This document shows, one piece after another, positions 1-13,210 of a DNA stretch of 13,210 nt. The stretch spans positions 1 through 13,210 of the forward strand of contig JASLZZ010000005.1 in NCBI GenBank assembly GCA_030754595.1, written 5' to 3'. Source of the stretch: Nitrospinota bacterium. Lineage in GTDB: Bacteria > UBA8248. Positions within the stretch are counted from its first letter, which is position 1; each line of letters opens with the position of its first letter. The position numbers and the translations under genes are program-made. The notes below the pieces were generated by a model. It was given only the letters and a program-made list of their open reading frames with translations. It had not been told where the DNA came from and made no database searches.

Positions 1-822
1 TCCATTCAAGTTCTGGTTCTCGGGAAGTCTGATGAAGTAGGTGATCCGCTTCTTCTCGCAGTACTCGTACATTTCCGGGCTGGCGGGGGCGGCGTCGCCG
101 CGAAGCCAGAACAAATCGAACCAGGGACGATACCTCTCCACGACGGGATGAATGAACGGGAGAGTTCCATCGGCCGGGTGAACATTACCCGGCCTGAGCT
201 TCGCTCCCAGGCAGGCGCCCTCGCCCGTGAAGGCAAACAGCGGATGAAAGCAGTTCGTGCCGAAGTGGCCGTTACAAGCAACTCTCTCATGGCTGCCGTG
301 GGCCGGGTCCTTGATGGAATCGACATCCACAATCAGCCGCCGCTTGCCCCGCTTCCCTAAAAAGGCCCCGGTCGAGCGCTGAAGCGCGCCGTCCAGCGCC
401 TTGAGCCCAGCCTCGCTGCCAAGAACATCGTTCTCCAGCCGCGAGAGCATGGACTGGCTCGCTCCCGCCTCGTGGCCTTTGCCGATTTAAAGCCGAAGCG
501 CCGGATCGATCCGGAGATGATCGGCATCGTTGCGGTCCTCGTAGCCGGCTCCTATCTGGTAGACCCGCTGACGGATCACCTGGACCAGGGAATGCCTGGT
601 GCGTACGGGAGACCTTCGGTCTTCGAGGCAACCACTCATGGGGCCGATGATGTCGAAGCGCCCGTCCATCTCCCGCAGGAGAAGAAAACCTGTGTCGGAG
701 CTGATTATGGCACCCTGGAAACCCACCAGGATAGAGCGGTTGAAATCGGGCCCCAGCACCTCTTTTTGGCCGCCACCACCTCCGAGCACCTGATGTCCTC
801 TCGCTCGGGCAATTTTAGCCAA
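1..822 (-). pseudogene. IS1380-family transposase, interrupted by an in-frame stop and truncated by the window edge
   Basis: ORF 487..822 has the IS1380-type N-terminus (PDFNRSILVGFQGAIISSDTGFLLLRE...QRVYQIGAGYEDRNDADHLRIDPALRL). Manual translation past the TAA at 487-489 continues in the same frame with no further stop to base 1: IGKGHEAGASQSMLSRLENDVLG...RLIVDVDSIKDPAHG...NGHFGTNCFHPLFAF...KLRPGNVH...FWLRGDAA...YFIRLPEN. This contains the DxDS and RGD acidic motifs typical of the family. Confidence 0.88.
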
Positions 823-889
823 TCATGTCATATAGTTACAAAGATTCTCGGCCCTTTTTGCTCTGTTGGATAATGTGGGGTACCATTCC

Positions 890-1093
890 CTACGAGAGTC
901 CTGGAACCATGGACGAAGGGCGAAGCGGAGCGAAGCCCGGAGGCCATGGTTCTTTCGTTTCGGGTGCTGGAGGCCGGTAGCCCAGTGAACTGTGCGGCCT
1001 GGTCCTGTTGTAGACATGCCGCCAGCGTTCCACCAGCACTTTTGCTTCATGTAGCGTATCGAATCCCTCTAGATTCAAGAGCTCATCCCGCAT
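890..1093 (-). pseudogene. IS3-family transposase OrfB C-terminal fragment
   Basis: MRDELLNLEGFDTLHEAKVLVERWRHVYNRTRPHSSLGYRPPAPE matches the IS3 OrfB tail (RDE.LN...W...YN..RPHSSLGY.PP). The upstream DDE region is absent. Confidence 0.9.
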
Positions 1094-1095
1094 CC

Positions 1096-1215
1096 CTGCT
1101 CTGATATCTCGATTCTCTTGCAGGCCACAGGCACGCTCTGGCCTTGAGAGAGCAGGAACTCGGCCTCTCTCAGCCTGGATATGATCTGCCCGGGTGTATG
1201 GCGCTTCTTGCTCAT
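1096..1215 (-). pseudogene. IS3-family OrfA N-terminal fragment (40 codons, not in the ORF track)
   Basis: Manual translation from the ATG at 1215 gives MSKKRHTPGQIISRLREAEFLLSQGQSVPVACKRIEISEQ, a typical OrfA HTH start. It breaks off exactly where TYYRW would follow. A GGGGGA SD lies just upstream (about 1221-1226). Confidence 0.85.
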
Positions 1216-1305
1216 CTACATCCCCCCAGATTGGGCGGTCACACCGAAAGAGTACCGAAAATACTCCCATTCAGCATGGACCGGTTTGAGGGGGGGGAAG
1301 ATCAA

Positions 1306-1713
1306 TTAGTCGTCCCTATTTAAAAATTCTACCCACCCGCCAAAATTTGTAATATCCCTCGCGGCTAGAATTACATACGATTCGCACAAAAAACCCTTCA
1401 CGAATTCTCCGTCTTCAAGCTCGATGGTCCCGATGCAAAGTGGGGCGAGGATATTTTCCATGAAAGCGCCAAAATATTCCGCATTTAACTCCCAGACCTC
1501 GACCTGAATTTCAGCACCTTCTTCGGGAACGCAACGCACGAGCCCCGGCTTAGGAGGGGTCGCCCCATCAAGTTCGTAAAGCCGATAAAGAGGACCTGTC
1601 CGGGCGGAGCGCACAAATTCGGCGCCCAGGTCTGTCAGCTGATGATTCAAGGGCTGGCCCCGCAGGTGCGCCCCGACGACTGCCAGGCGGATTCGCTTTG
1701 TCCCAGATATCAT
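1306..1713 (-). CDS. atzF: Allophanate hydrolase C-terminal domain (separated from the amidase domain by one in-frame stop)
   Basis: LAVVGAHLRGQPLNHQL...YRLY...PPKPGLVR...EVWEL...PLCIGTIELEDG..VKGFLCE......DITNFGGW is the allophanate hydrolase C-domain pattern. It is in the same frame as 1717..3153 and has no obvious SD before the ATG at 1713. Confidence 0.88.
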   Translation of the reverse strand: MISGTKRIRLAVVGAHLRGQPLNHQLTDLGAEFVRSARTGPLYRLYELDGATPPKPGLVRCVPEEGAEIQVEVWELNAEYFGAFMENILAPLCIGTIELEDGEFVKGFLCESYVILAARDITNFGGWVEFLNRDD

Positions 1714-1716
1714 GGT

Positions 1717-3153
1717 TTATTCTGCGGGGATGGGATGCGGGGTGGCGCCGAGGTTCAGTCCCGATTCACGTTGAAACGCCGTGCCTAGGGCGCAAAGCCC
1801 GCTTTCCTGAAATGCAGGCGCTATAAAAGTGACCCCTGCTGGAAGGCCGTTCGAATAAAAGCCGTTCGGCACCGCGATGCCGCACAAATCCAGCAGGTTC
1901 ATGAAATTCGTGTAGAAACTCAGGTTGTTGTTCAGGGCAATTGGATCGGATTCGACATCGGAGATTGAATAGATCGTTCCGGTAGTAGGAACGACCATCA
2001 TGTCGATATCGTCCCATGTTTTTCCCGTAATTTTTTTCAGCCCTTCCAGCCGGTAAATCCCCCCAAAAGTGTCAGAGGCCGAATATCCCCGGCCTTTTAC
2101 AATCAAATCCCGGGTAACGGGATGCAATGCTTCTGGTTTGGCATCGAAAAATTCACGAATGGCAGCATACCGCTCGGCCATCCAGGGACCTTCATACACC
2201 AATCGGGCCGTCTCATGAAATGTTGTGTAGTCAATTTCGACGACAACCGTCCCCATTTTCCGCAGCCGATCGATGGCACCGTTAAAAAGTTCCTCTGCAT
2301 TTTCATTGCCGAAAAACTCCCGCTGATTTTTACGCGGTACGCCCACCCGGAGTCCACCGGAGGAATCGGCTAATGATTTTTTTATCCATTCGTGGGGTAC
2401 AGAGCGAGAGAATGGATCCGACTCGTCTTCTTCCGCCATCGTTCGGAGCGCTTCCAGCGCGTCTGGAACGGTCAGGGCGAACACCGATGCGCAATCCAGC
2501 GAGCGGCAGGCCGGGACAACCCCGGACATGCTCACAAGCCCCCGGGTAGGCTTTAAGCCGACGATGTTGTTGAAGCCGGCGGGCACGCGCCCCGATCCGG
2601 CGGTGTCCGTCCCCAGCGCGAAGCTCACCAGACCGGCGGAAACCGCCACCGCTGAACCCGAGCTCGAACCACCCGGGATAAATCGCTCGTCAAAAGGATT
2701 CCGCGCAACCCCGTAGGGAGAGCGCACCCCCACCAGGCCGGTTGCGAACTGATCCATGTTCGTCTTGCCGATTAAAATTGTGCCGGCATCTAAAAGTCGC
2801 TCGACGGCGGGGGCTGTTTTTTCGGGAACGTAGGTGTATTCCGGGCACCCCGCTGTTGTGGGCCTGCCCATCCAATCGATATTGTCCTTGATGGCAAACG
2901 GAAGGCCGTACAGAGGGTATCGGGATAAAAGCGCCTCGGCGGACAGCCCTTCGGCGAGAGATTCCAATTCCTCCGCTCTGGCGAAAACCTTTTCCTCGGG
3001 TTCAAGGTAAATCCAGACGCCGTCTTTGCCTCGGCGAGCGATCCGGCCGATTACGGTCTTCGCCACATCGCGGGGCTTTAGCTCATCTCTACCGTATAAA
3101 CCCCTGAGTGCAATGAAATTCAGACTTCCCGATTCATCGGACCAATCTCTCAT
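1717..3153 (-). CDS. atzF: Allophanate hydrolase, amidase-signature N-terminal domain
   Basis: Amidase signature and Ser-cisSer-Lys triad motifs: PFAIKDNID, GKTNMDQFATGLVGVRSPYG, GGSSSGSAVAV, GTDTAGSGRVPAGFNNIVGLKPT. Also carries the allophanate-hydrolase-type YEGPWMAERY and YTNFMNLLDL motifs. Confidence 0.93.
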   Translation of the reverse strand: MRDWSDESGSLNFIALRGLYGRDELKPRDVAKTVIGRIARRGKDGVWIYLEPEEKVFARAEELESLAEGLSAEALLSRYPLYGLPFAIKDNIDWMGRPTTAGCPEYTYVPEKTAPAVERLLDAGTILIGKTNMDQFATGLVGVRSPYGVARNPFDERFIPGGSSSGSAVAVSAGLVSFALGTDTAGSGRVPAGFNNIVGLKPTRGLVSMSGVVPACRSLDCASVFALTVPDALEALRTMAEEDESDPFSRSVPHEWIKKSLADSSGGLRVGVPRKNQREFFGNENAEELFNGAIDRLRKMGTVVVEIDYTTFHETARLVYEGPWMAERYAAIREFFDAKPEALHPVTRDLIVKGRGYSASDTFGGIYRLEGLKKITGKTWDDIDMMVVPTTGTIYSISDVESDPIALNNNLSFYTNFMNLLDLCGIAVPNGFYSNGLPAGVTFIAPAFQESGLCALGTAFQRESGLNLGATPHPIPAE

Positions 3154-3416
3154 GCGATACGAACTCTCTCTCGCGGAGGGTCAGTATACTCCTCCGGAAA
3201 ATGACAGGCCATCCCCAAGCCGCCGCAATAGGGTCGTAATATCGGCATTTCACTCATGCACCGCCCCTCTCCTTTCGAGCAACGGCTGTGGAAGCGGCAA
3301 CACTTAGGAGAGAAACCGATCGGGCTCATCGGCTCGCCGGTAATGCGGATTCGTTCAAAGCGGTGTTCTTTCCGTAGAGCCGGGACCGCCGAGAGAAGCG
3401 CCTTCGTGTAGGGATG
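3150..3416 (-). pseudogene. C-terminal remnant of an oligopeptide/dipeptide ABC transporter ATP-binding subunit (oligo_HPY domain, OppD/OppF/DppD/DppF-like)
   Basis: HPYTKALLSAVP...GEPMSP...CCRFHSRC......C....P........ACH is the characteristic HPY plus Cys-rich tail. No Walker A/B region is present upstream. Its TGA overlaps the atzF ATG (ATGA, 3153-3150). Confidence 0.88.
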
Positions 3417-3600
3417 CCTAGTTACACCCACATGCATGATCCGCCGCGAGCCATGCTCCAAAAGGACGAATACATAGAGAATCCAAAACGTCACCGTTAC
3501 AGGTACAAAGAAATCACAGGCCAGGATGAATCCAGCATAATTTTGCAAGAAAGTGGCCCAGCGCTAGTCATTTCGTAATTCGCGTGATGGCAGTCCATGG
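3411..3600 (-). pseudogene. Integrase-core (rve) transposase fragment with an in-frame stop
   Basis: The frame reads ...LPSRELRND*RWATFLQNYAGFILACDFFVPVTVTFWILYVFVLLEHGSRRIMHVGVTRHP. This resembles the (Q)RW.TFL.NHA..I.ACDFF...T..F..LYVF...EH.SRRI.H..VT.HPT segment of rve-domain IS transposases. The TAG at 3564-3566 sits where Gln (CAG) would be expected. The upstream boundary is approximate. Confidence 0.8.
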
Positions 3601-3901
3601 CGGAGATTTTGCCACACTCGGATCCCATCAAGTGACCTTTTTAACCTATTCAGTCCAGGTAAGATCCGCTTTTTGCGGAGCACAAGTATTTCGCCATGCA
3701 CAGGTAGTAAGTACCTTAAAGGAATGAGTACAGGAAAAATTTTCCTCAATCACAATACGGTTTCAATGTACTCAATTTCCTCTGGAATCACTTTTGTGGG
3801 GCTCCGCTATAGCCGCGTTAATAATAAGCAAGACGCAGGCACGGCCACGAGATACTATCATGCCGGATGAACCCAGCTCTCCTGATCATTTGGGCGCTCT
3901 T

Positions 3902-4869
3902 TCATTTTTTTGTAATGTGCGTACCCGTTTCGCCATGTAAGGTGGGGAGCGCCTCTTCCAATTCGGCAATAATGACATGTTTCCCACCCCCCTCGAGAAA
4001 GCGGATGGCAGCTTCGACCTTGGGCCCCATGCCTCCCGGCGGGAAGTGTCCTTCGGCTGGTAGATCCGAAGCTCGGAAAGGGAAATTTTATCGAGTTCTC
4101 TCTCCTTATCCGTGCCGAAGTAGATGGCGACACTGGAAACCGATGTCAAGATCATCATATGCTCAATTCTGAGAACGTTCCCCATCAGCGCCGAGGTAAG
4201 GTCTTTATCGATAACCGACTCGACACCCTCGCGTGTTCCTCTCGCGCTGCGCACAACAGGAATTCCGCCTCCGCCTCCGGCGATGCAGACGGCGCCTCCT
4301 TCGATAACCGTCCGGACGAGGGAGGTGTCTGCGATATGCTTCGGTTCCAGCGAGGGAACAACATGCCGCCAGCCTCGGTTCGCATCCTCTTGCATCTCCC
4401 AACCCATTTGCTTCTTGAGTTCTTGAGCTTCTTCTTCGGTGTAGAAATAACCGATGGGTTTCGTAGGGTTTTGGAAAGCGGGGTCACCGGGGTCCACTTC
4501 GACTTGGGTCAGAAGACACGCCACGTGATGAGGGTTTCCTGCCTCCCGAAGCGTGTTTTCGAGCGCCTGCATGAGGGGGTAGGCGATTCTCCCTTGGCTA
4601 TGCGCAACGCAAATGTCCATCGACATTGGAGTTACCCGGTCACGGGCAAGAATTTGGCACATCAATATTTTGCCCACAACGGGCCCATTGCCGTGCGTAA
4701 TTACCAGTTCGTTATTTAATTCCATGAGAGGGAGAAGGGCGCATCCTGTAGCGTGAGCAATCGCTCCTTGGTCTTCCGGGGTGCCCAAAATGCCGGGCGG
4801 ATGGGTAGCGTTCCCACCGATTGCGACGTGAAACCGACCAGGAATATCTGGATGGCGGCCCATGCTCAT
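3902..4869 (-). pseudogene. arcC: Carbamate kinase (ArcC/YbcF/YahI-like) with a 1-nt frameshift near the C-terminus
   Basis: Motifs VAIGGNA, ITHGNGPVVG, DPAFQNPTKPIG, GGGGIPV and GVESVIDKD. At about 4056-4057 homology shifts frame: the alternative frame gives [50 protein letters not shown] with TGA at 3902-3904. Adding one base restores a 322-aa protein. Confidence 0.9.
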
Positions 4870-4989
4870 CCATCCCCAGGGGCAAGAACCATTTATCGCG
4901 AACCTTCGAGACCACTACCTTCGACATTTCCTTCGGCGAATCTCTTGAACCTCGCTGCGGCCGAAAATTGACCTCACGCTCTCATCTGT

Positions 4990-5015
4990 AAAAGGCGGGG
5001 TAAAAATATTCCCCG
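4990..5015 (-). terminator. Possible weak intrinsic terminator after the DUF1116 gene
   Basis: Minus strand CGGGG-AATATTTTTA-CCCCG-CCTTTT: a 5-bp GC stem followed by a short U run, about 55 bp after the DUF1116 stop. The stem and U tract are short. Confidence 0.3.
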
Positions 5016-5071
5016 ATTGTAATCCCCTTTGAAAATATCCTGCCGCGGTTTTCCCGGCGAAGCCTTCCAGG

Positions 5072-6490
5072 CTATGCGGACATCTTTTCGGCTAGGGCCT
5101 CGAAAGCTTCCTGGAACGGAGCTTCGGGCGCACGGAGAATGCCCGCCCCTATCTGCCCGATACCCGCATCCCGGTGGGCGATTCCGGTATTGATATTGGG
5201 ATATATACCCGTTTCGATCACTTTCCGGATGTCGATTCCCATCGGAACTCCCGTAAAATCAAATATCGGAAGGGTATAGTCCCGGCTCCTCGTCCAGGTG
5301 ATTCCGTACATCTCGTTGGTCGCCTGAATGGCCTCGGCCGTTGACCCTCCGACAAACTGGACGATCGCGGGCGCGGCCCCCATCGCAAATCCACCGAGGC
5401 CGAGGGTCTCCATAATCGCCGAATCGCCAATATCCAGGTTGGCGTCCTCCTGGCCATAGCCGGGGAAAAAGAGCCCGACCGGATGCTTCGCCGGCGCGGT
5501 GAACCACTGATTCCCCAGACCACTAACCCGAATGCCAAACTCGGTCCCATTGCGCGCCATGGCGTAGACCAGGGAGCAGCCTTCCACGTTGGCCATAGCA
5601 TCCAGGCTCGCCTTGGCAGCCGGCATCCCCAAATTCAGAAAAAAGTGATCGTTCCCGGCAATAAAATCCGCCACGCGGGATATCACCTTCGTATCGCTCA
5701 CCGAATCCGCCAGGTGGGGCATAATCATCCGAAATACCGTTGCCGTCGCCGCCAAGTTTCGGTTGTGGACCTCATCGCCCATGTGCAAGGCCCGCGCAAT
5801 TATGTTTTTGATATCGAGGCCACCTTCCATCGCCTTCACCGTCTCCTGCATGGCCGGGGCCAGTTCATCCGCCATCCACCGGAGGCGATCCAAGACGTCC
5901 GGCGAATATGCGCCGTACCGAAGAACCTTGCCCAGACCCTCGTTAAGGTTTGAATAGCTCCTGTTGCCGCCTCCCAAATCGGACGGCGCCTGATTTTCGA
6001 TGATGTTGACAGGCATCGAGGGCGAAATCACGCCCGCCATCGGCCCCACCGCCGAATGGTGATGACAGGGCTCGAAGGTAATCTCTCCGCCCGCGCCAAG
6101 CTTTTCCGCCTCGCTTTCGTCTTTTGCCCAGCCCTCCAGGAGCATGGCTCCGATCATCGCGCCCCGCATGGGGCCCGACATATTCTCCCAGATGATGGGA
6201 GGTCCGGCGTGCAGGAACATCCTCTCCCCCATTCCGGGTATCGCGTCGGCGGCAACCCCCACATCCACCCATACGGGCCTCGCGGCCTGAAGACGCTCCA
6301 TTGCGATATCGTTGGCCGCATCGCAAGAGGTTAGTCGGTCGAGACGTTCAACCATTTCCGGATCTCCTCCCGCAGCGGGACGCCAATCCACCTGGACGAC
6401 AGGGGCATTCTGGGAAACAAGGCTGTCCGAAAACAGCTCCACCCCAATATTTGCAACACGAACACCCTCCAGTAGCTTTTCCTCATTCAC
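5072..6490 (-). CDS. DUF1116 family protein (YlbE/AllG/YahG-like; putative carbamoyltransferase component)
   Basis: Motifs LHAGPPI.WE.M.GPMRGA, PCHHHSAVGPMAGV.SPSM, NEGLGKVLRYGA, ALHMGDEVHNRN, MARNGTEFGIRVSG, DIGDSAIMET.GLGGFAM and INTGIAH..AGIGQIGAG. The GTG start overlaps the fdrA-like TGA (GTGA, 6490-6487). Confidence 0.93.
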   Translation of the reverse strand: MNEEKLLEGVRVANIGVELFSDSLVSQNAPVVQVDWRPAAGGDPEMVERLDRLTSCDAANDIAMERLQAARPVWVDVGVAADAIPGMGERMFLHAGPPIIWENMSGPMRGAMIGAMLLEGWAKDESEAEKLGAGGEITFEPCHHHSAVGPMAGVISPSMPVNIIENQAPSDLGGGNRSYSNLNEGLGKVLRYGAYSPDVLDRLRWMADELAPAMQETVKAMEGGLDIKNIIARALHMGDEVHNRNLAATATVFRMIMPHLADSVSDTKVISRVADFIAGNDHFFLNLGMPAAKASLDAMANVEGCSLVYAMARNGTEFGIRVSGLGNQWFTAPAKHPVGLFFPGYGQEDANLDIGDSAIMETLGLGGFAMGAAPAIVQFVGGSTAEAIQATNEMYGITWTRSRDYTLPIFDFTGVPMGIDIRKVIETGIYPNINTGIAHRDAGIGQIGAGILRAPEAPFQEAFEALAEKMSA

Positions 6491-8055
6491 CCGGCAAACT
6501 CCTTAAGCGCGGCCGCGGCTGACAGGCATGCCTCTACATGCGTATCCGCGACCAAAGCCCCGGCCTCCGCCAGTTTGACGCGCTGGGCTTTCAGATCCTG
6601 CGGATCGCCTCTAGTCCCCGTCACGGAACCGACAAACAAAACGTCTGGACTCGAAATCAGCGCCTTTTCAATCGCTTTTGCCACCTCCCCCGCCGGATTT
6701 TCATGCGAACCCAATCCCAAAACCACATCAAAGAGCACCACAGCCGTTTCGGAATCCTCAGCTTCTTGAATGAGCCTGGCGTTTCTCGGCTCGGGATCGA
6801 CCATGGGATGGGGTTTTCCCCGGGTGAAAAAGTCATCGCCCAAATCTACCACCGAATGGCCTTCCGACTTCATGGGATCCGCCATCATCCCATTGATTTT
6901 ATTGATTGGCGCATTTGAACGGATACCCGAAACTGTCCTTCCGATGACTGCCTGCGCTTCGGCGCACAGCGTCCCGCCCGTATAGACGCCCCGCAGGAAT
7001 CGCCTACTCTTCGCGCATCGCCGGCCCCATTCGGAAATCCTTTTTGACGATTCTGGGCCGAATTCAAATGTCTCTACAACACCCGGCCGGCCGGCTAGTA
7101 AAACCGAAAGTCTCCCTGCGGCGGCCAACGAATCTGCCTCGTAAAGATGGGAAAATTTGCCGACCCACCGGCGGATTTCCCCGGTCCGGACCCCGACAAA
7201 GTGTATAACTATCGGCTTTCCGCACCTGGCGGCCGCTTCGAGCACTTTCTCCATCGCCACAGCCTCGGGGGGTTTTCCCAGTATCAACAGAACCTCCGTG
7301 CCCGAATCTTTCGCGAGCATCTCGATGGACTGAATCATGGCAAGGCCGCCCACGGCGTCGGAAACATCCCGCCCCCCGGTGCCCAAGGCGCATGAAATTC
7401 CGCCACCCGCCGCGTCAATAGCGGCCATGACTTCCTGAATGCCCGTCCCGGCCGCGCCTACGATTCCGATTTTCCCCGGCCGCATTACATTGCAAAAACC
7501 GAGTCCAACGCCTCCGATATGAGCCGTTCCGCAGTCGGGGCCCATTACCAGCAGGCCCTTCTCCCGGCCCATTCGCTTGAGCGCCACCTCGTCCTCGACG
7601 GAGACGCTATCGCTAAAGATCAGGCAATGAAGGCCTTTTCGGAGCGCACGCTCCGCCTCGCGGCGTACGTTCGGTCCGGGAATCGAAAAAAGAGCGAGAT
7701 TGATCTGGGAATCTTTTCCCAATGCGGCGTCCAGGGTCGGTACGGGGAAATTCGTAAATACTCCTGCTCCTCCGCCGGATCGAGGTGTACTCAGGTCCGC
7801 TTCCATGGAAGCCAGCAGATCTTCCGCCACCTGTGCACTGTCCGCCTCTACAGCCAGGACAAGATCGTTCGGTCCTGCATGATCCGCCTGGCCGGCAAGC
7901 AGGCCTCCCTGGGCAAGCAGTTCGCGGTTCATTGGGGTTCCCAAAACTGCCACTGCCTGCCGAATACCCGGTTTCTCCCAGGGGGCAGCGCTGACACGCA
8001 TCAGCTTCACCGAATCGTGGTATACACCTGACAATACGCGAACAGCTACCGCCAT
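6487..8055 (-). CDS. fdrA: FdrA/YahF-family acyl-CoA synthetase-like protein (succinyl-CoA ligase fold)
   Basis: Motifs YHDSVKLM, GTPMNRELL, LLVMGPDCGTA, GIVGAAGTGIQEV, GTGGRD.S..VGG, GVYTGGTLCAEA, DLGDDFFTRGKPHPMVDP, DVVLGLGSH and GT..DPQ. A GGAG SD lies upstream of the ATG at 8055. Confidence 0.93.
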   Translation of the reverse strand: MAVAVRVLSGVYHDSVKLMRVSAAPWEKPGIRQAVAVLGTPMNRELLAQGGLLAGQADHAGPNDLVLAVEADSAQVAEDLLASMEADLSTPRSGGGAGVFTNFPVPTLDAALGKDSQINLALFSIPGPNVRREAERALRKGLHCLIFSDSVSVEDEVALKRMGREKGLLVMGPDCGTAHIGGVGLGFCNVMRPGKIGIVGAAGTGIQEVMAAIDAAGGGISCALGTGGRDVSDAVGGLAMIQSIEMLAKDSGTEVLLILGKPPEAVAMEKVLEAAARCGKPIVIHFVGVRTGEIRRWVGKFSHLYEADSLAAAGRLSVLLAGRPGVVETFEFGPESSKRISEWGRRCAKSRRFLRGVYTGGTLCAEAQAVIGRTVSGIRSNAPINKINGMMADPMKSEGHSVVDLGDDFFTRGKPHPMVDPEPRNARLIQEAEDSETAVVLFDVVLGLGSHENPAGEVAKAIEKALISSPDVLFVGSVTGTRGDPQDLKAQRVKLAEAGALVADTHVEACLSAAAALKEFAG

Positions 8056-8081
8056 TTCATTTTCTCCACTTCATCCGAAAC

Positions 8082-8801
8082 CTAATTCTCTATCATCGCC
8101 ACCGCACGAATGGGGGAGCCCGAAATGCCGCGGAACTTGATGGGGAGCACCGAAATTTTAAAACCGTGCGGCTTAGGAATTAGATGTAAATTCACCAAAT
8201 TTTCGATATGGCAGTACTCCTTTTCGAGCATGACTCGGTGGGCTTCCCAGTATCGCCGGGTTTCGTGCATTTTCCAAATCGGGACATCCCATCCGCTCCC
8301 GTCGATTCCCATCACGTAGATGCCGTTGTCGATCAAGTAGTGGGTCGCCTCAGCGCTCATACCCGGCTGGTTCTTCGTGTAATCCGGGTTCGTCTGCCAG
8401 TCCAGGCTTGCATCGGTGCGGATCAATACAATGTCTAAAGGCTTGAGGGTATAGTCGATTTTTTTTAGGACAGCTTCCACATCTGCCGCCACGATCTCGT
8501 AACCGTGTTCCTTGTCGGTAAAATCTAAAATGACCCCGTCCGAAATACACCATTCAATCGGAATCCGTTCAGTCGTAAATCCGTCAGGATTATTATGCCA
8601 GGGGGAGTCGATGTGTGTCCCGGTATGGTCGCTCATAAATATTACGCAATGGTTCGTAACTATGTCGGCGCCATAGTTAATAGCACCGGTCCGTCGGGCC
8701 ACGGTATCCCAGTCTTCATCAACGGTGAGGGATGGGCCTGGAAGATCGGGATAAATCGGCATATCCCGATATATTTCCATACTCAAATCGATCAATTCCA
8801 T
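8082..8801 (-). CDS. Cyclase family (kynurenine formamidase/isatin hydrolase-like) metal-dependent amidohydrolase
   Basis: IDLS start, metal-binding HTGTHIDSPWH (HxGTHxDxPxH), GID, EAH, HIENL.NL and SPIRAVA. The ATG at 8801 (MELIDLS) has an AAGGAG SD at 8816-8811, so it is preferred to the ORF-track start at 8843. Confidence 0.92.
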   Translation of the reverse strand: MELIDLSMEIYRDMPIYPDLPGPSLTVDEDWDTVARRTGAINYGADIVTNHCVIFMSDHTGTHIDSPWHNNPDGFTTERIPIEWCISDGVILDFTDKEHGYEIVAADVEAVLKKIDYTLKPLDIVLIRTDASLDWQTNPDYTKNQPGMSAEATHYLIDNGIYVMGIDGSGWDVPIWKMHETRRYWEAHRVMLEKEYCHIENLVNLHLIPKPHGFKISVLPIKFRGISGSPIRAVAMIEN

Positions 8802-8864
8802 TTTGGAAGTCTCCTTTTGGCTAAGAAACGATTCCCAGAACATGTGTCCAATTATCCAGCACGG

Positions 8865-11800
8865 TCACCTTGACGGCCGCACCGAAGAATAATTCACCCC
8901 GCGATCAAAGAAAGCGGGAATCCCTCGCCGGGCCCGGATCGAATCTCGAAGCGAGGCGGTCGCATTCTCGTCAACTTCGAGAGATTCCTCATTCCGGAAC
9001 ACGACCCCATAGTCGCGGCCCGCGCCTTCGGCGCTTACCTTTCCCCAGAGAACGTCCCGGCTAACCAGATCTACCTCGCGCTCGAGCGGATCGCCCCACC
9101 CGCCACCACCCGTGGTGACCACGCGAATTAAATCCCCTTCAGCGATCGCGACACGATTGCTGAGGGCGGGGACCCCGCGCTCATCGGGCCGACCTGGGTT
9201 TACCGTAACTCGGTAGAGCCCGCCCGCACCGCCACCATTCGTTCCCCAGGGGGCTAGAAACGACCGGTCGGCGTTGCTCAAGGCCTCGCAGTCACAAAGC
9301 ACCCTAACCTCCTTGAAGTAGCCCAATCCTCCGCGCCACTTTCCCGGCCCGCCGGAATCGCATGCAAGCCCGAGACGCTCCACCCGTACAGGGAAGCGCC
9401 CCTCGCTAAACTCGGCGGGAAGATTCCGGCTGTTGGGAACGACGTGAATCACGTCCTCACCATCCCCCCAGGGGCGACCGCCCGAGCCGCCTCCCAGAAT
9501 TTCCCGGAAAAGGAAAAACTTCCCTTGCTCGTCGTGGCCGTGGATTCCCCAGTAGCGAATGGTTTCTTGATCGGCCGGCATGGCCCCTTTCGTCGCGAGA
9601 CCCAACACACCGCAGAACAGGCTCAACAGGCGTAGTATGGTAAAGGTCCGCATATTCGTGGGAGCCGGAAACACAGGCGTGATCAGGGTGCCGGGCTCCG
9701 GGAAACGGATATCGATCAACCGGCAGATTCCTTCGTTGATGTCGATCTCGAACATTCGCTCGTAGCTGTCGGCCAGATTCCGGAGAATGGGGCCGATCCA
9801 TTTTTTTAAAAACTGCCCGTCGGAATAATTGCCCGGCCAATTGATCGGCCCCATCGCCTGGGAAGAGGTGCCTTGAAAATCGAGAAGCAGGCGACCGCTA
9901 ATTTTCGTCATCTTCAATTTTAGGGTGTGGATTCTACCCGCCTCCACCCCGTCGGATTCAATGTAATCTTCCCATTCGTATTCACCGTCGGGAATTTTCG
10001 AAATGAGTTCCTCCCGAATCGTGTGCTCGCATTTATCCAAAAAACCCTCGAAACATTGAATTGCCGTATTTCTGCCGAATCGCTCGAAAAGCTCAATCAC
10101 GCGGGCGGCGCCCACCCGGCAGGCAGCGATTTCGGCGTCGATGTCTGCCTGAAGGTGTTCGGAGAGGCGGCTGTTTCGGAAAATTACCGTATAGAGGTCT
10201 TCGTTCCGGACCCCTTTATCGTAAAGCTTGACCGGGGGGACCAGCAGGCCTTCTTGGAATATTTCCGTCGCGTTCGTCGGAAGGCTGCCCGGAATCATCC
10301 CGCCGATATCGTCATGATGCCCGAACACCAGCGCAAATGCGACGATTTCATCTTCATGGAAAATTGGAATGCACGAACACAAGTCGGGCAGGTGGCCGAT
10401 GCCGCCCTCGGCAAGATACACATCGTTCCAAATGAACACATCCCCCGGACAGATTTCATCGACGGTCCATTTTTTAAAAATCGGATCCACCACGGCGGAA
10501 TAGGACCGCCCGGTGAGCTTTCGGCCTTCACGGTCGAACAGGCCTACCCTGTAATCGTGCATATCCCGAATGAGGGGAGAGCGCGCGGTCCGCTCGACCA
10601 GGTCTTCCATCTCGCGCTCCGCCGCATAAAGAGCTCCTTCAATAATTTCCTGAACAACGGGGCCCGGTTCATTTTCCGATTGGCCGCCGTTATTTGCGGA
10701 CCTCGTCTCTCCCTTTTCTCCAGCCGGCAGCGAAATTCGCAAATTCCCCCACTCGTCGATCCCGCACCGGCTTCCGGGTAAAATCACCGTAGTGGCTCCG
10801 AAATCCTCGACGATGGTGGGCCCTTCGACTCGATCTCCTTTGCCGAGCCTGGCGCGGTCGTATACGGGGGTCTCGACAAAACCCAACGAGGCGAAATACA
10901 CCGGCCGCTCGCCGGTTCGCGCCGGTTCCGCTCCTTTTCCTTCAGCTATTCGCTTCATTGGCGCTTTTTTCATCTCACCAATCGCGGTGAGCCTGAGGTT
11001 CACCATTTCCACCGGCGTCTGGCTCTCGTAGTTAAAGCCGAATTGTGCTTTGTATTCCTCATGAAATCGGTCAACCGCGAGACGGGTGACTTCGGCAAAC
11101 GTCCCGGCCGGCGAAATATCTACGCGCATCTCTTGCCCCTCACCGAAATAGCGCATATCCACGGACCGGACGAAAACGCGGGAAGCGGAGTCCACCAGTT
11201 CCACCTTTAAATCGGCATCGGCTTCCTCTTCCATTTTATGAAACTCGTTTTCAATCCGCTCCGGGGAAATTTCGTCCATCCGGGTGATGAAAGTCTTGAC
11301 GTAATCGTTTCGAAGGTCCACTTCGACGAGACCGACCGAGCTCCCGCATCCGGGCTGTGGCGGGACAACGATTTCCCGCACACCCAGAACTTCGGCGATG
11401 TCGGCGGCCATCAACGGACCCGCCCCGCCGAATGCCACCAGGACGAACTCCCGGGGATCCTTGCCTTGGTTCACCGTCATTTTCCGAATGGCGAGGGCCT
11501 GGTTCCATGCCGCCACCTCGATAATCCCGCGCGCCGCCTCCTCGGGACCGAGCCCTTGCTTTTCCGCGATGGTACGAATTCCCATTTCGGCGAGGGCTTT
11601 GTCCAGGGACAGACTTCCACCCGCCAGGGATTGAGGTAGCCGTCCAAGGAACAGCTGCGCGTCGGTCACGGTGGGTTCCTCGCCACCCTTGCCGTAGCAC
11701 ATGGGACCCGGGTTCGCCCCCGCGCTACGCGGGCCCACCTGAAGCCGGCCATCGGTATTCATCCAGGCGACGGACCCGCCACCCGTTCCCACGGCAACGA

Positions 11801-12800
11801 TATCGATCATCGGAACCTTGACGGTGTGCTCGCCGATTTTCGAGTTGGTTGTGAAGCGCGGATTTCCGTTCTCAACGACGGAAACGTCGGTCGAGGTTCC
11901 ACCGGCATCGAACGTGATAATTTTCGAGAGGCCCGCCTCGCGGGCGAGCGCCGAACAAGCCAGTACTCCCGCCGCCGGCCCGGATAAGGCTGTCGTCAGG
12001 GGGCGGCCCGCAATCTTGCCAGCTCCCATCACGCCGCCATTGGACTTCATCACGAGAAACGGCGTTTCCGGCGTAAGGGTCTCGCGAATGCGGGTCTCCG
12101 CCCGGTCGATGTAGCCTTTGATAACCGGCTTGCAGGCAGCGTCCATCAGGGTGGTCAGCGCCCGCTCGTATTCCTGGTATTCCGGCAATACATCGGATGA
12201 AAGCGACACATGGCACTCTGGATATTCTTCCGAAAATATTTGCCGGAGGCGGATTTCGTGCGCGGGATTCACATAGGAATGGAGCAAGCACACCCCGGCC
12301 GTCTCGACCCCCATTTTCCGTAACCGACGGGCCGCGCTCCGCGCGGAGGCTTCATCGAATTCCTTGAGTTCCTTTCCTAAATAATCGAAACGCCCGCCAA
12401 CCTCCATGACCCTCGAAACGGGAACCAAGCGTGGCGGCTTCACCCAAAAAAAAGAATTGCCGTATCCGTCCGGGACGCTCTGCCTCGCGATTTCCAGGAG
12501 AAACCGGAAACCCTCGCTCACCACTAGGCCCATGTTGTGGTCTTCCCGCTCCAGCAGGGAGTTCGTGGCGACGGTCGTTCCGTGGATGAAAGCAGATACG
12601 GCCGAAGGCGCCGCCGCTCCTTTTTCGAGAATCACCCGGATTGCGGAAAGCAGGGATTCGGCTGGATCCCAGGGAGTGGAAGGGACTTTATCCGAAAAAA
12701 CCTCTCCGTCCTCTTCCCGGACGGCCACCACATCGGTAAACGTGCCGCCCGTGTCCACGCCAATTCGGAATTTCGAGTTCGAATTCACGTGTTTCCCCAT
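8865..12800 (-). CDS. Fused hydantoinase A + hydantoinase B / oxoprolinase family ATP-dependent cyclic amide hydrolase
   Basis: A half: IGVDTGGTFTD, HGTTVATN, EYER, SGPAAGV, DAGGTSTD, GTGGGS, VGPRSAGANPGPMCYG, TVTDA, AFGGAGPL. B half: RTARSPLIRD..D, GHLPD, GHHDDIGG..PGS, EIFQEG, GGGSGGR, DSGGPGKWRGG, GGGGWGDPLER. The ORF-track start at 12839 is TTG. ATG 12800 or GTG 12788 is more plausible. Confidence 0.93.
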   Translation of the reverse strand: MGKHVNSNSKFRIGVDTGGTFTDVVAVREEDGEVFSDKVPSTPWDPAESLLSAIRVILEKGAAAPSAVSAFIHGTTVATNSLLEREDHNMGLVVSEGFRFLLEIARQSVPDGYGNSFFWVKPPRLVPVSRVMEVGGRFDYLGKELKEFDEASARSAARRLRKMGVETAGVCLLHSYVNPAHEIRLRQIFSEEYPECHVSLSSDVLPEYQEYERALTTLMDAACKPVIKGYIDRAETRIRETLTPETPFLVMKSNGGVMGAGKIAGRPLTTALSGPAAGVLACSALAREAGLSKIITFDAGGTSTDVSVVENGNPRFTTNSKIGEHTVKVPMIDIVAVGTGGGSVAWMNTDGRLQVGPRSAGANPGPMCYGKGGEEPTVTDAQLFLGRLPQSLAGGSLSLDKALAEMGIRTIAEKQGLGPEEAARGIIEVAAWNQALAIRKMTVNQGKDPREFVLVAFGGAGPLMAADIAEVLGVREIVVPPQPGCGSSVGLVEVDLRNDYVKTFITRMDEISPERIENEFHKMEEEADADLKVELVDSASRVFVRSVDMRYFGEGQEMRVDISPAGTFAEVTRLAVDRFHEEYKAQFGFNYESQTPVEMVNLRLTAIGEMKKAPMKRIAEGKGAEPARTGERPVYFASLGFVETPVYDRARLGKGDRVEGPTIVEDFGATTVILPGSRCGIDEWGNLRISLPAGEKGETRSANNGGQSENEPGPVVQEIIEGALYAAEREMEDLVERTARSPLIRDMHDYRVGLFDREGRKLTGRSYSAVVDPIFKKWTVDEICPGDVFIWNDVYLAEGGIGHLPDLCSCIPIFHEDEIVAFALVFGHHDDIGGMIPGSLPTNATEIFQEGLLVPPVKLYDKGVRNEDLYTVIFRNSRLSEHLQADIDAEIAACRVGAARVIELFERFGRNTAIQCFEGFLDKCEHTIREELISKIPDGEYEWEDYIESDGVEAGRIHTLKLKMTKISGRLLLDFQGTSSQAMGPINWPGNYSDGQFLKKWIGPILRNLADSYERMFEIDINEGICRLIDIRFPEPGTLITPVFPAPTNMRTFTILRLLSLFCGVLGLATKGAMPADQETIRYWGIHGHDEQGKFFLFREILGGGSGGRPWGDGEDVIHVVPNSRNLPAEFSEGRFPVRVERLGLACDSGGPGKWRGGLGYFKEVRVLCDCEALSNADRSFLAPWGTNGGGAGGLYRVTVNPGRPDERGVPALSNRVAIAEGDLIRVVTTGGGGWGDPLEREVDLVSRDVLWGKVSAEGAGRDYGVVFRNEESLEVDENATASLRDSIRARRGIPAFFDRGVNYSSVRPSR

Positions 12801-12917
12801 CAGTAAATAAACTTCTTCCGTGTTTTTTTCAAAATGCAATCATCCGTTTTGCCCATAGTGGTTATTGCCGCCGCAAATCCTGGAAACCAGAACGACAGAC
12901 CCCGAAATTTCTTTTGG

Positions 12918-12992
12918 AATCCATGTAACATACTGGACCTAATTACCAAAATTTGGAATAAAATAGTGAGAAAATCCACGTAACATACTGGA
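12918..12992. repeat. Two direct copies of a 20-bp quasi-palindromic box (candidate operators)
   Basis: AATCCATGTAACATACTGGA (12918-12937) and AATCCACGTAACATACTGGA (12973-12992) are 19/20 identical with a 55-bp period. Each is TCCA-N10-TGGA with an inner GTA-N3-TAC. Confidence 0.85.
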
Positions 12993-13027
12993 ATCGGAAT
13001 TATGCGGCAACGCCCCCAATTTAGCAA
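12982..13027 (-). promoter_or_regulatory. Candidate sigma70-type promoter(s) for the operon
   Basis: Minus strand TTGCTA(13027-13022)-N17-CATAAT(13004-12999). An overlapping alternative is TTGCCG(13010-13005)-N17-TATGTT(12987-12982). Motif match only. Confidence 0.45.
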
Positions 13028-13210
13028 AATCCGACCTTATTTTCCTTCCTCGGCGGTGCTTCTCACGGAGATGGCCATCAAGTGCGCTGAAAGATCCCTC
13101 TGAGGCGGCTCCTATAGTCAAAATCACGGTGCACAAGCAGTATTCTCCATTTCAGGGCGCGGTGGTTCCCTCTCCTCCTGACTCAACACCCCCTGATGCC
13201 CTCATCAGCC

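Follow-up and report, generated by a model that had tools for sequence, protein, structure and literature searches.

What might a fused hydantoinase, a cyclase-family hydrolase, homologs of the Escherichia coli proteins AllF and AllG, and a carbamate kinase-like protein do side by side in a marine bacterium? The question is raised by contig JASLZZ010000005.1 of the metagenome-assembled genome (MAG) GCA_030754595.1, labelled Nitrospinota bacterium. We analyzed this contig (C5 of the MAG G000) over its entire 13,210 bp and call it the window. Its five co-oriented genes occupy positions 3886–12839 of the minus strand, and their best explanation appears to be that together they make up a single catabolic unit in a Nitrospinota-related marine family. 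More specifically, we put at roughly 0.55 the probability that they represent a modular unit of ureide catabolism, in which a ring-opening enzyme, phosphorolysis by AllF/AllG (probably with AllH), the carbamate kinase, and hydrolysis by the cyclase would be combined.

The conserved core and its putative ring-openers

The first gene of the block (8865–12839, minus strand, as are all five) encodes a fused HyuA/HyuB protein, hereafter HyuAB, of 1324 aa with a TTG start as listed and four Pfam domains, Hydant_A_N, Hydantoinase_A, Hydant_A_C, and Hydantoinase_B, all above their cut-offs. It is followed by a PF04199 cyclase (8082–8843 as longest open reading frame [ORF]; Pfam score 124 bits), an FdrA/AllF homolog (6487–8055; 522 aa; NF004760 score 444 bits for a cut-off of 433), an AllG/DUF1116 homolog with a GTG start (5072–6490; 472 aa; PF06545, 315 bits), and the carbamate kinase-like gene (CK; 3886–4869; 327 aa). 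The gap between HyuAB and the cyclase is 21 bp if the latter starts at its first ATG and 63 bp if it starts at the ATG at 8801, which is the likely start, being preceded by an AAGGAG ribosome-binding site and giving a protein of 239 aa. The cyclase and fdrA are 26 bp apart, the fdrA stop overlaps the allG start (GTGA), and 202 bp separate allG from CK. ORF, Pfam, and NCBIfam analyses bear out the gene families, co-orientation, and spacings given by a sequence-only reading of this stretch; the block ends that it proposed, 3902 and 12800, lie slightly inside the true ones.

Our survey covered 51 genomes of the phylum and 38 loci. A species-level set was obtained by a scan with the cyclase protein, one genome being kept per species, which gave 25 loci (cyclase identity 83–98%), all from MAGs labelled Nitrospinota, Tectomicrobia, or "bacterium." By tblastn, FdrA directly follows the cyclase in 24 of them, the 25th contig ending at that point, and AllG follows FdrA in 22, the other three contigs ending first. 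Cyclase orthologs (at least 82% identity) are present in 27 of the 51 genomes, from four genera of one family, and it is cyclase-allF-allG, not HyuAB, that makes up the invariant core in these 27 genomes. The whole block also recurs. A metagenome scan with the window CK recovered the source contig (L039) and a 100-kb contig (L050) on which all five genes stand in the same order (HyuAB 87%, cyclase 91%, FdrA 83%, AllG 90%, CK 66%). A single nucleotide alignment of this contig with the window spans 3861–12828, and the homology stops at the borders of the five-gene block, upstream of which L050 carries a GntR-FCD regulator fragment and an FmdA/AmdA-type amidase and downstream an EamA permease. 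The four-gene order is found in L006, L007, and L026 as well. Because the ratio of nonsynonymous to synonymous substitution rates (dN/dS), calculated against L050, L007, and L026, is 0.02–0.17 in all five genes, the combination is real and maintained by selection; the cyclase is the most constrained (0.02–0.05), with HyuAB at 0.09–0.13 and CK at 0.16. The recurring order and the purifying selection on every gene agree with the earlier view of the five as a conserved unit.

These results bear on the possibility that nitrogen-catabolic genes without a shared pathway came together here by chance, through flanking insertion sequences (IS). Multi-copy repeats do lie at both contig ends, fragments of IS3 and IS1380, a truncated ATP-binding cassette (ABC) ATPase, and an allophanate hydrolase are found beyond CK, and an IS or a serine recombinase directly follows the block in L006 and L007. 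However, order and spacing are kept without those elements on the 100-kb contig, where homology stops exactly at the block borders, and the core is kept without them on complete chromosomes of genus g3. Conservation thus largely refutes this explanation, which we consider very improbable.

The genes found around the core in relatives give further indications on its function. In the sister genus, a common layout is CK, AtzD, a divergent four-gene ABC importer of the BMP/PnrA type, and cyclase-FdrA-AllG, after which a UrtA-like binding protein often comes. Of the 17 loci whose upstream flank extends over the full 10 kb, 13 contain AtzD; among all 25 loci, 19 have a BMP-type ABC binding protein and 12 a CK within 10 kb. 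Genome-wide, AtzD occurs in 39 of the 51 genomes. The linked AtzD passes the NCBIfam equivalog for cyanuric acid amidohydrolase (521 vs. 360 bits) and scores 490, 455, and 389 bits with solved cyanuric acid hydrolases against 268 with barbiturase. With this equivalog passed, and with 268 bits set against 490 and 455, a function as barbiturase in the oxidative pyrimidine route is less likely. A second, unlinked AtzD paralog is less clear (330 vs. 247 bits). In the window's own genus, one contig (L007) carries AtzD, the ABC importer, HyuAB, cyclase, AllF, and AllG together. Because AtzD or HyuAB, or at this one locus both, stand beside the same core, the ring-openers look interchangeable in front of one putative carbamoyl-phosphate-forming module.

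The best solved relative of HyuAB is 7hk5_A, a fused "N-methylhydantoinase" of 1288 aa (E-value 4e-224, full length), followed by 6yra_A, deposited as "5-oxoprolinase," and then by acetophenone and acetone carboxylases. HyuAB scores below every NCBIfam equivalog cut-off, for example, caprolactamase alpha (478 vs. 1000) and acetophenone carboxylase gamma (290 vs. 1500). Orthologs (at least 69% identity) were found in 13 of the 51 genomes, and HyuAB lies upstream of the cyclase in five of the 25 species-level loci (L005, L006, L007, L026, and L027). The two genes remain neighbors in three genera, g1, g2, and g7, as well as in L050, at identities as low as 70%. A paired 20-bp motif, a candidate operator pair, lies upstream of HyuAB on the minus strand (12973–12992 and 12918–12937); it has only two hits in the whole MAG at up to three mismatches, and is kept in L006 and L007, with no counterpart found in L050 or L026. 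The 3.5-Mb genome also encodes nine further HyuA/HyuB sets and about 14 further cyclase-family genes, and for three of the further Hyu sets, those on C66, C109, and C127, the distance to a cyclase gene is no more than about 6–11 kb.

HyuAB might alternatively be functionally separate, for instance, an N-methylhydantoinase or an oxoprolinase-type lactamase, and lie only by chance upstream of an independent cyclase-allF-allG-CK unit. Its scattered distribution is in favor of such a separation: a HyuAB ortholog adjoins the cyclase in 7 of the 51 genomes, that is, in 7 of the 27 with the core, and is missing there in the other 20; in L028, a deletion has left no more than ~100 residues of the N-terminal and ~115 of the C-terminal end; and orthologs of 69–73% identity in another family (f4) lie in contexts without cyclase, beside an NCS2 nucleobase permease and an amidohydrolase (L057) or beside transporters (L056). 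The nine other HyuA/B sets of the genome point in the same direction. On the other hand, only 21–63 bp and no gene separate HyuAB from the cyclase, their adjacency persists in the three genera and in L050, HyuAB is under purifying selection within the same block, and the paired motif precedes HyuAB and not the cyclase. We therefore regard a separate HyuAB as unlikely, though as an alternative to be kept in mind. The 7/27 count does not bear out the suggestion of the sequence-only reading that HyuAB and the cyclase open the ring jointly.

AllF, AllG, AllH, and the cyclase

FdrA matches PDB entry 3dmy (FdrA; E-value 5e-77) and is 37% identical to both AllF and YahF of E. coli. For AllG, the identity is 51% with YlbE/AllG of E. 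coli and 44% with YahG; the N-terminal ~50 residues of the protein correspond to the C-terminal tail of the E. coli AllF, the domains being split as in YahF/YahG. In an 11-sequence tree, the cyclase-linked AllGs formed their own clade (support 100/99), separate from E. coli AllG and YahG; another separate clade grouped the second AllG copy of the genome G001 with those of marine CK-AllG-AllF-AllH clusters. Such clusters are recurrent on marine metagenome contigs (L041–L049), with CK, a gap of ~1.5 kb, and then AllG, AllF, and AllH, all on one strand. AllG is present in 42/51 genomes, many of those of genus g3 having a second copy of 416 aa elsewhere; the one in G001 (L053; contig C2, 5530–10641), also of 416 aa, is flanked by an Amidohydro_3 gene on one side and, on the other, by an 803-aa ORF that matches no Pfam family, with no FdrA or AllH beside it. 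The genome under study encodes exactly one AllF/AllG pair, that of the window. What we take to be the phosphohistidine motif of succinyl-coenzyme A (CoA) synthetase, used as a regular expression, matched none of five FdrA-family sequences.

According to the part of the text available, Kim and Kim 2024 (PMC11326118) established that AllFGH catalyzes the reaction oxamate + carbamoyl phosphate <-> oxalurate + Pi, that the E. coli enzyme requires the three genes allF, allG, and allH, and that oxalurate is the only substrate proven for the family. The sequence-only reading, in which FdrA, YlbE, and YlbF were merely "linked to" the oxalurate reaction, named the right reaction with an outdated status, as the available text reports that they were shown in 2024 to be an oxamic transcarbamylase (PMC11326118). 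It also omitted AllH (DUF2877), which that text gives as required by the E. coli enzyme (PMC11326118) and of which our genome has one copy on contig C114. Finally, the formation of a CoA ester by FdrA finds no support: the substrates of the E. coli enzyme are, in the same available text, carbamoyl phosphate and oxamate (PMC11326118).

No DUF2877 protein is encoded in the window, and tblastn detected no AllH within 10 kb of the core in the 25 loci. The single copy in the genome (C114, 6248–7399) directly follows a second CK. The surrounding locus (L031; C114, 5107–8009) consists of this CK, AllH, and a 218-aa ORF, which shares 57% identity, in an alignment of 136 residues, with an ACT-domain protein located beside the HyuAB ortholog of L057. 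The CK-AllH pair exists in two other HyuAB-carrying genomes as well; in three AtzD-type genomes, AllH lies beside an ApbA/PanE-like reductase, and in G045, which is devoid of the cyclase, it adjoins AllG. AllH largely co-occurs with AllG, a single full copy being present in 40 of the 51 genomes. The C114 protein would most likely serve in trans the AllF/AllG pair of the window, the only one in the genome. We also considered the cyclase as a replacement for AllH, that is, as the third subunit; this candidate was set aside, AllH being kept in those 40 genomes, ours included.

The block can thus be compared with E. coli allFGHK. Shared by both are the order of AllF and AllG, the overlap of stop and start, a CK downstream, the presence of AllH in the genome, and, presumably, phosphorolysis of an N-carbamoyl compound to carbamoyl phosphate, then to ATP. 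Kim and Kim reportedly dealt with allFGHK and its catabolic carbamate kinase AllK in 2022, and the regulation of the allF operon is said to be the subject of a later paper. Unlike its E. coli counterpart, the block has AllH outside the operon and a cyclase that always precedes allF, its AllG belongs to a separate clade with 51% identity and a YahF/YahG-like domain split, and HyuA/B or AtzD as ring-opener is attached where no allantoin genes supply oxalurate. A closer parallel comes from nitrifiers. In the available text of PMC12625717, allFGHK stands beside triuret/biuret genes and bmpA-nupABC in comammox bacteria and archaeal ammonia oxidizers; AllF/AllG/CK beside polyureide genes and a BMP-type ABC importer are common to these clusters and to the loci studied here. 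The nitrifier clusters, however, contain AllH, the same text mentions for them no cyclase or HyuA/B partner, and it interprets oxalurate and biuret as two separate pathways, with no atzD in its nitrifier genomes (PMC12625717). The literature searched, of which the supplements of PMC12625717 were not part, yielded no described cyclase, HyuA/B, or AtzD partner of AllF/AllG.

The metal motif of the cyclase is intact (HTGTHIDSPWH from residue 73, for the pattern HxGTHxDxPxH). Its nearest solved relatives are 8hmo, an uncharacterized metal hydrolase, kynurenine formamidases, and isatin hydrolases (E-values 1e-5 to 1e-14); a literature search on PDB 8HMO retrieved no paper. With 55 bits for a cut-off of 223, the protein does not reach the arylformamidase equivalog TIGR03035. 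A 76%-identical paralog is encoded on contig C26 of the same genome (L004; 48000–67000), between a molybdopterin oxidoreductase and a homocysteine-S-methyltransferase-like gene. The next genes encode a corrinoid protein, a pair of UroD-like methyltransferases, and a RACo activase, and an ABC importer and a CN-hydrolase are encoded close by. This second locus looks like a putative demethylation system for a nitrogen compound.

Given these homologies, the core might be an ordinary oxalurate-splitting oxamic transcarbamylase, in which the cyclase would either make oxalurate, by hydrolysis of parabanate or another five-membered trione, or hydrolyze the product oxamate, with HyuAB and AtzD as mere neighbors. 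The 51% identity between the two AllGs, FdrA passing NF004760, the presence of AllH and CK in the genome, and the fact that isatin hydrolases, which belong to the cyclase family, open a cyclic alpha-keto-amide all fit this view, as does the status of oxalurate as sole proven family substrate in the available text of PMC11326118. Yet a source of oxalurate is hard to recognize: searches of the genome with E. coli AllA, AllE, and AllW as queries found nothing, and those with AllB, AllC, and AllD found only members of large generic superfamilies at 25–33% identity, none of them convincing. Moreover, the cyclase-linked AllG clade stands apart from both E. coli AllG and the second copy of sister genomes, and in relatives it is linked to a cyanuric acid hydrolase as ring-opener, an enzyme that does not yield oxalurate. 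A divergent oxalurate source is possible; we nevertheless find this explanation rather doubtful. The same queries support the earlier statement that the module is not tied to a recognizable allantoin pathway, and the family search likewise confirmed that no allantoinase, allantoate amidohydrolase, or ureidoglycolate dehydrogenase is found among the window ORFs.

Expression, occurrence, and flanking genes

Near-identical sequences were found in RNA libraries, namely 26 contigs of 90–260 nt from four libraries (at most three samples, three studies), which touch CK, AllG, FdrA, cyclase, and HyuAB. In two of the studies, contigs terminate 55 nt upstream of the HyuAB start, at 12893 and 12896, which gives a weak hint that these ends may mark a transcript start. 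In DNA, at least 0.85 of the sampled words of an 8,971-bp stretch were present in 16 seawater/marine metagenome runs, eight of which are possibly the source and one of which has a coded organism name. Next to none of the sampled words were present in runs X21 and X22. Because the stretch occurs nearly word for word in these 16 runs, the organism is not rare.

The MAG totals 3.55 Mb in 138 contigs (completeness 96.9%, contamination 6.4%). Both ends of the window (1–1300 and 12995–13210) are multi-copy repeats that recur in dozens of further contigs of this MAG, often at their termini, and that include IS1380 and IS3 fragments; 12995–13210 is 99.5% identical to the end of C26. Because the ends are repeats, the assembly breaks there, and their sharing with other contigs of the MAG supports the binning.

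Beyond CK, where the window's IS3 and IS1380 fragments are located, lies an ABC ATPase fragment (3150–3548, minus strand) that corresponds only to the C-terminal oligo_HPY part of the DppF/OppF type and overlaps the start of an allophanate hydrolase. It represents what is left of a truncated transporter operon that adjoins the CK end of the block. The allophanate hydrolase (1306–3153, minus strand; NF006043, 611 bits), 340 bp beyond CK, was rejected as an operon member: the homology with L050 ends at 3861, and the truncated ATPase intervenes before CK. One in-frame TAA is located in the linker between its amidase domain and its C-terminal domain. Homologs in three sister genomes have one TAA inside the match too, and in the G001 homolog the amidase domain is the last part of the ORF, which comprises 459 aa. 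Accordingly, the split may be native rather than the sign of a pseudogene. G001 was also considered as a possible carrier of a canonical AtzE/AtzF cluster, but its allophanate-hydrolase-like gene is among generic amidases that score under the AtzE cut-off.

A proposed route and its meaning

Besides the distribution of HyuAB, several observations weigh against a shared ureide pathway. The window CK is under all curated carbamate kinase cut-offs (TIGR00746, 263 vs. 358; PRK12354, 235 vs. 361; PRK12352, 234 vs. 266; PRK09411, 182 vs. 416) and above that of Pfam AA_kinase (29.9 vs. 24.9); carbamate kinase is nonetheless the only family matched, and the protein is 58% identical over its full length to a CK that passes PRK12352 and 36% identical to E. 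coli AllK. AllH is never beside the cyclase core in the 51 genomes, its service to the core being a prediction from gene content. The genome, at its 96.9% completeness, has no match to PF09663 (AtzD) and no BMP importer, and because both are missing the link to cyanurate comes only from relatives. In at least two cases (L014 in G029 and L015 in G033), the core has neither HyuAB nor an AtzD of the linked type nearby. In L058 (G046, C303, 4313–10315), HyuAB, cyclase, and AllG stand back to back without FdrA, and AllG is missing its first ~35 residues. In the closest relative, L006 (5061–9556), FdrA looks fragmented and an element encoding an rve_3 integrase interrupts CK after its first ~190 bp, so that this block seems to be decaying. 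Finally, no contig from the four RNA libraries, in which DNA carry-over is possible, bridges a gene junction, and promoter and terminator scans gave counts at the level of shuffled sequence, that is, of chance.

With these reservations, a modular ureide unit could work as follows. HyuAB would spend one ATP to open the ring of a cyclic ureide or imide and give an N-carbamoyl compound, a step that in sister genomes the AtzD cyanuric acid hydrolase would perform without ATP. AllF/AllG, probably with the C114 AllH, would then phosphorolyze the carbamoyl-nitrogen bond to carbamoyl phosphate, from which CK would produce ATP, NH3, and CO2 with ADP, repaying the ATP spent by HyuAB. The cyclase may hydrolyze the remaining amide, as an amidase of the oxamate, urea, biuret, or malonamate type, or may alternatively carry out another hydrolytic step just before the transferase. 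Each of these reactions is read from protein families and gene neighborhoods; what we observed directly is the content, order, conservation, selection, and co-occurrence of the genes. The sequence from ring opening through phosphorolysis to ATP, already put forward by the sequence-only reading, fits the sister loci, in which AtzD and CK lie beside the core, its reactions remaining putative. As for the substrate, the neighborhoods point to cyanurate- or biuret-like polyureides or to nucleobase-derived rings, not to allantoin.

The proposed route resembles several known ones in part. Cyanuric acid is mineralized by AtzD/TrzD, then by BiuH or AtzEG-AtzH, and then by the allophanate hydrolase AtzF. 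The sister loci have a cyanuric acid hydrolase of the characterized type and the window an allophanate hydrolase, whereas no biuret hydrolase or AtzE was recognized beside the core and AtzD is followed instead by cyclase, AllF/AllG, and CK; in addition, our own genome is devoid of AtzD, and the window's allophanate hydrolase is outside the conserved block. In the creatinine/N-methylhydantoin route, an ATP-dependent N-methylhydantoinase (HyuA/B) is followed by N-carbamoylsarcosine amidase. The fused N-methylhydantoinase as nearest solved relative of HyuAB and an N-carbamoyl product are points in common, whereas the hydrolytic N-carbamoyl amidase step would here give way to phosphorolysis and CK, and neither creatinine deaminase nor sarcosine genes were seen in the block. 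The arginine deiminase and agmatine/putrescine carbamoyltransferase pathways likewise release a ureido group as carbamoyl phosphate, which carbamate kinase converts to ATP. The transferases of these pathways have the ornithine transcarbamoylase (OTCase) fold, in contrast to the AllF/AllG type of the block, which is unrelated to this fold.

A bolder version of the modular unit, which we hold to be rather improbable, would make the AllF/AllG clade polyureide phosphorylases that use phosphate to convert biuret, carboxybiuret, or allophanate, as carbamoyl-urea or carbamoyl-carbamate compounds, to carbamoyl phosphate. Cyanurate and rings related to it would then be mineralized with a gain of ATP and without biuret hydrolase or urease, HyuA/B being an ATP-driven alternative ring-opener or a urea-activating enzyme and the cyclase a small-amide hydrolase.

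The AllF/AllG/AllH carbamoyltransferase was identified only in 2024 and, according to the available text, for oxalurate only (PMC11326118). What is new here is that AllG proteins of a distinct clade are tightly associated with a cyclase-family hydrolase and that two unrelated putative ring-openers, the ATP-dependent HyuA/B and cyanuric acid hydrolase, together with CKs, appear to serve this combination in different genomes. If our interpretation is true, the release of ureido groups as carbamoyl phosphate and the banking of their energy as ATP would be a general strategy for the degradation of cyclic ureides, including cyanuric acid, a pollutant and product of guanine oxidation, in widespread marine bacteria, and functions could be assigned to cyclase-family proteins, fused bacterial HyuA/B, and YahF/YahG-like paralogs.

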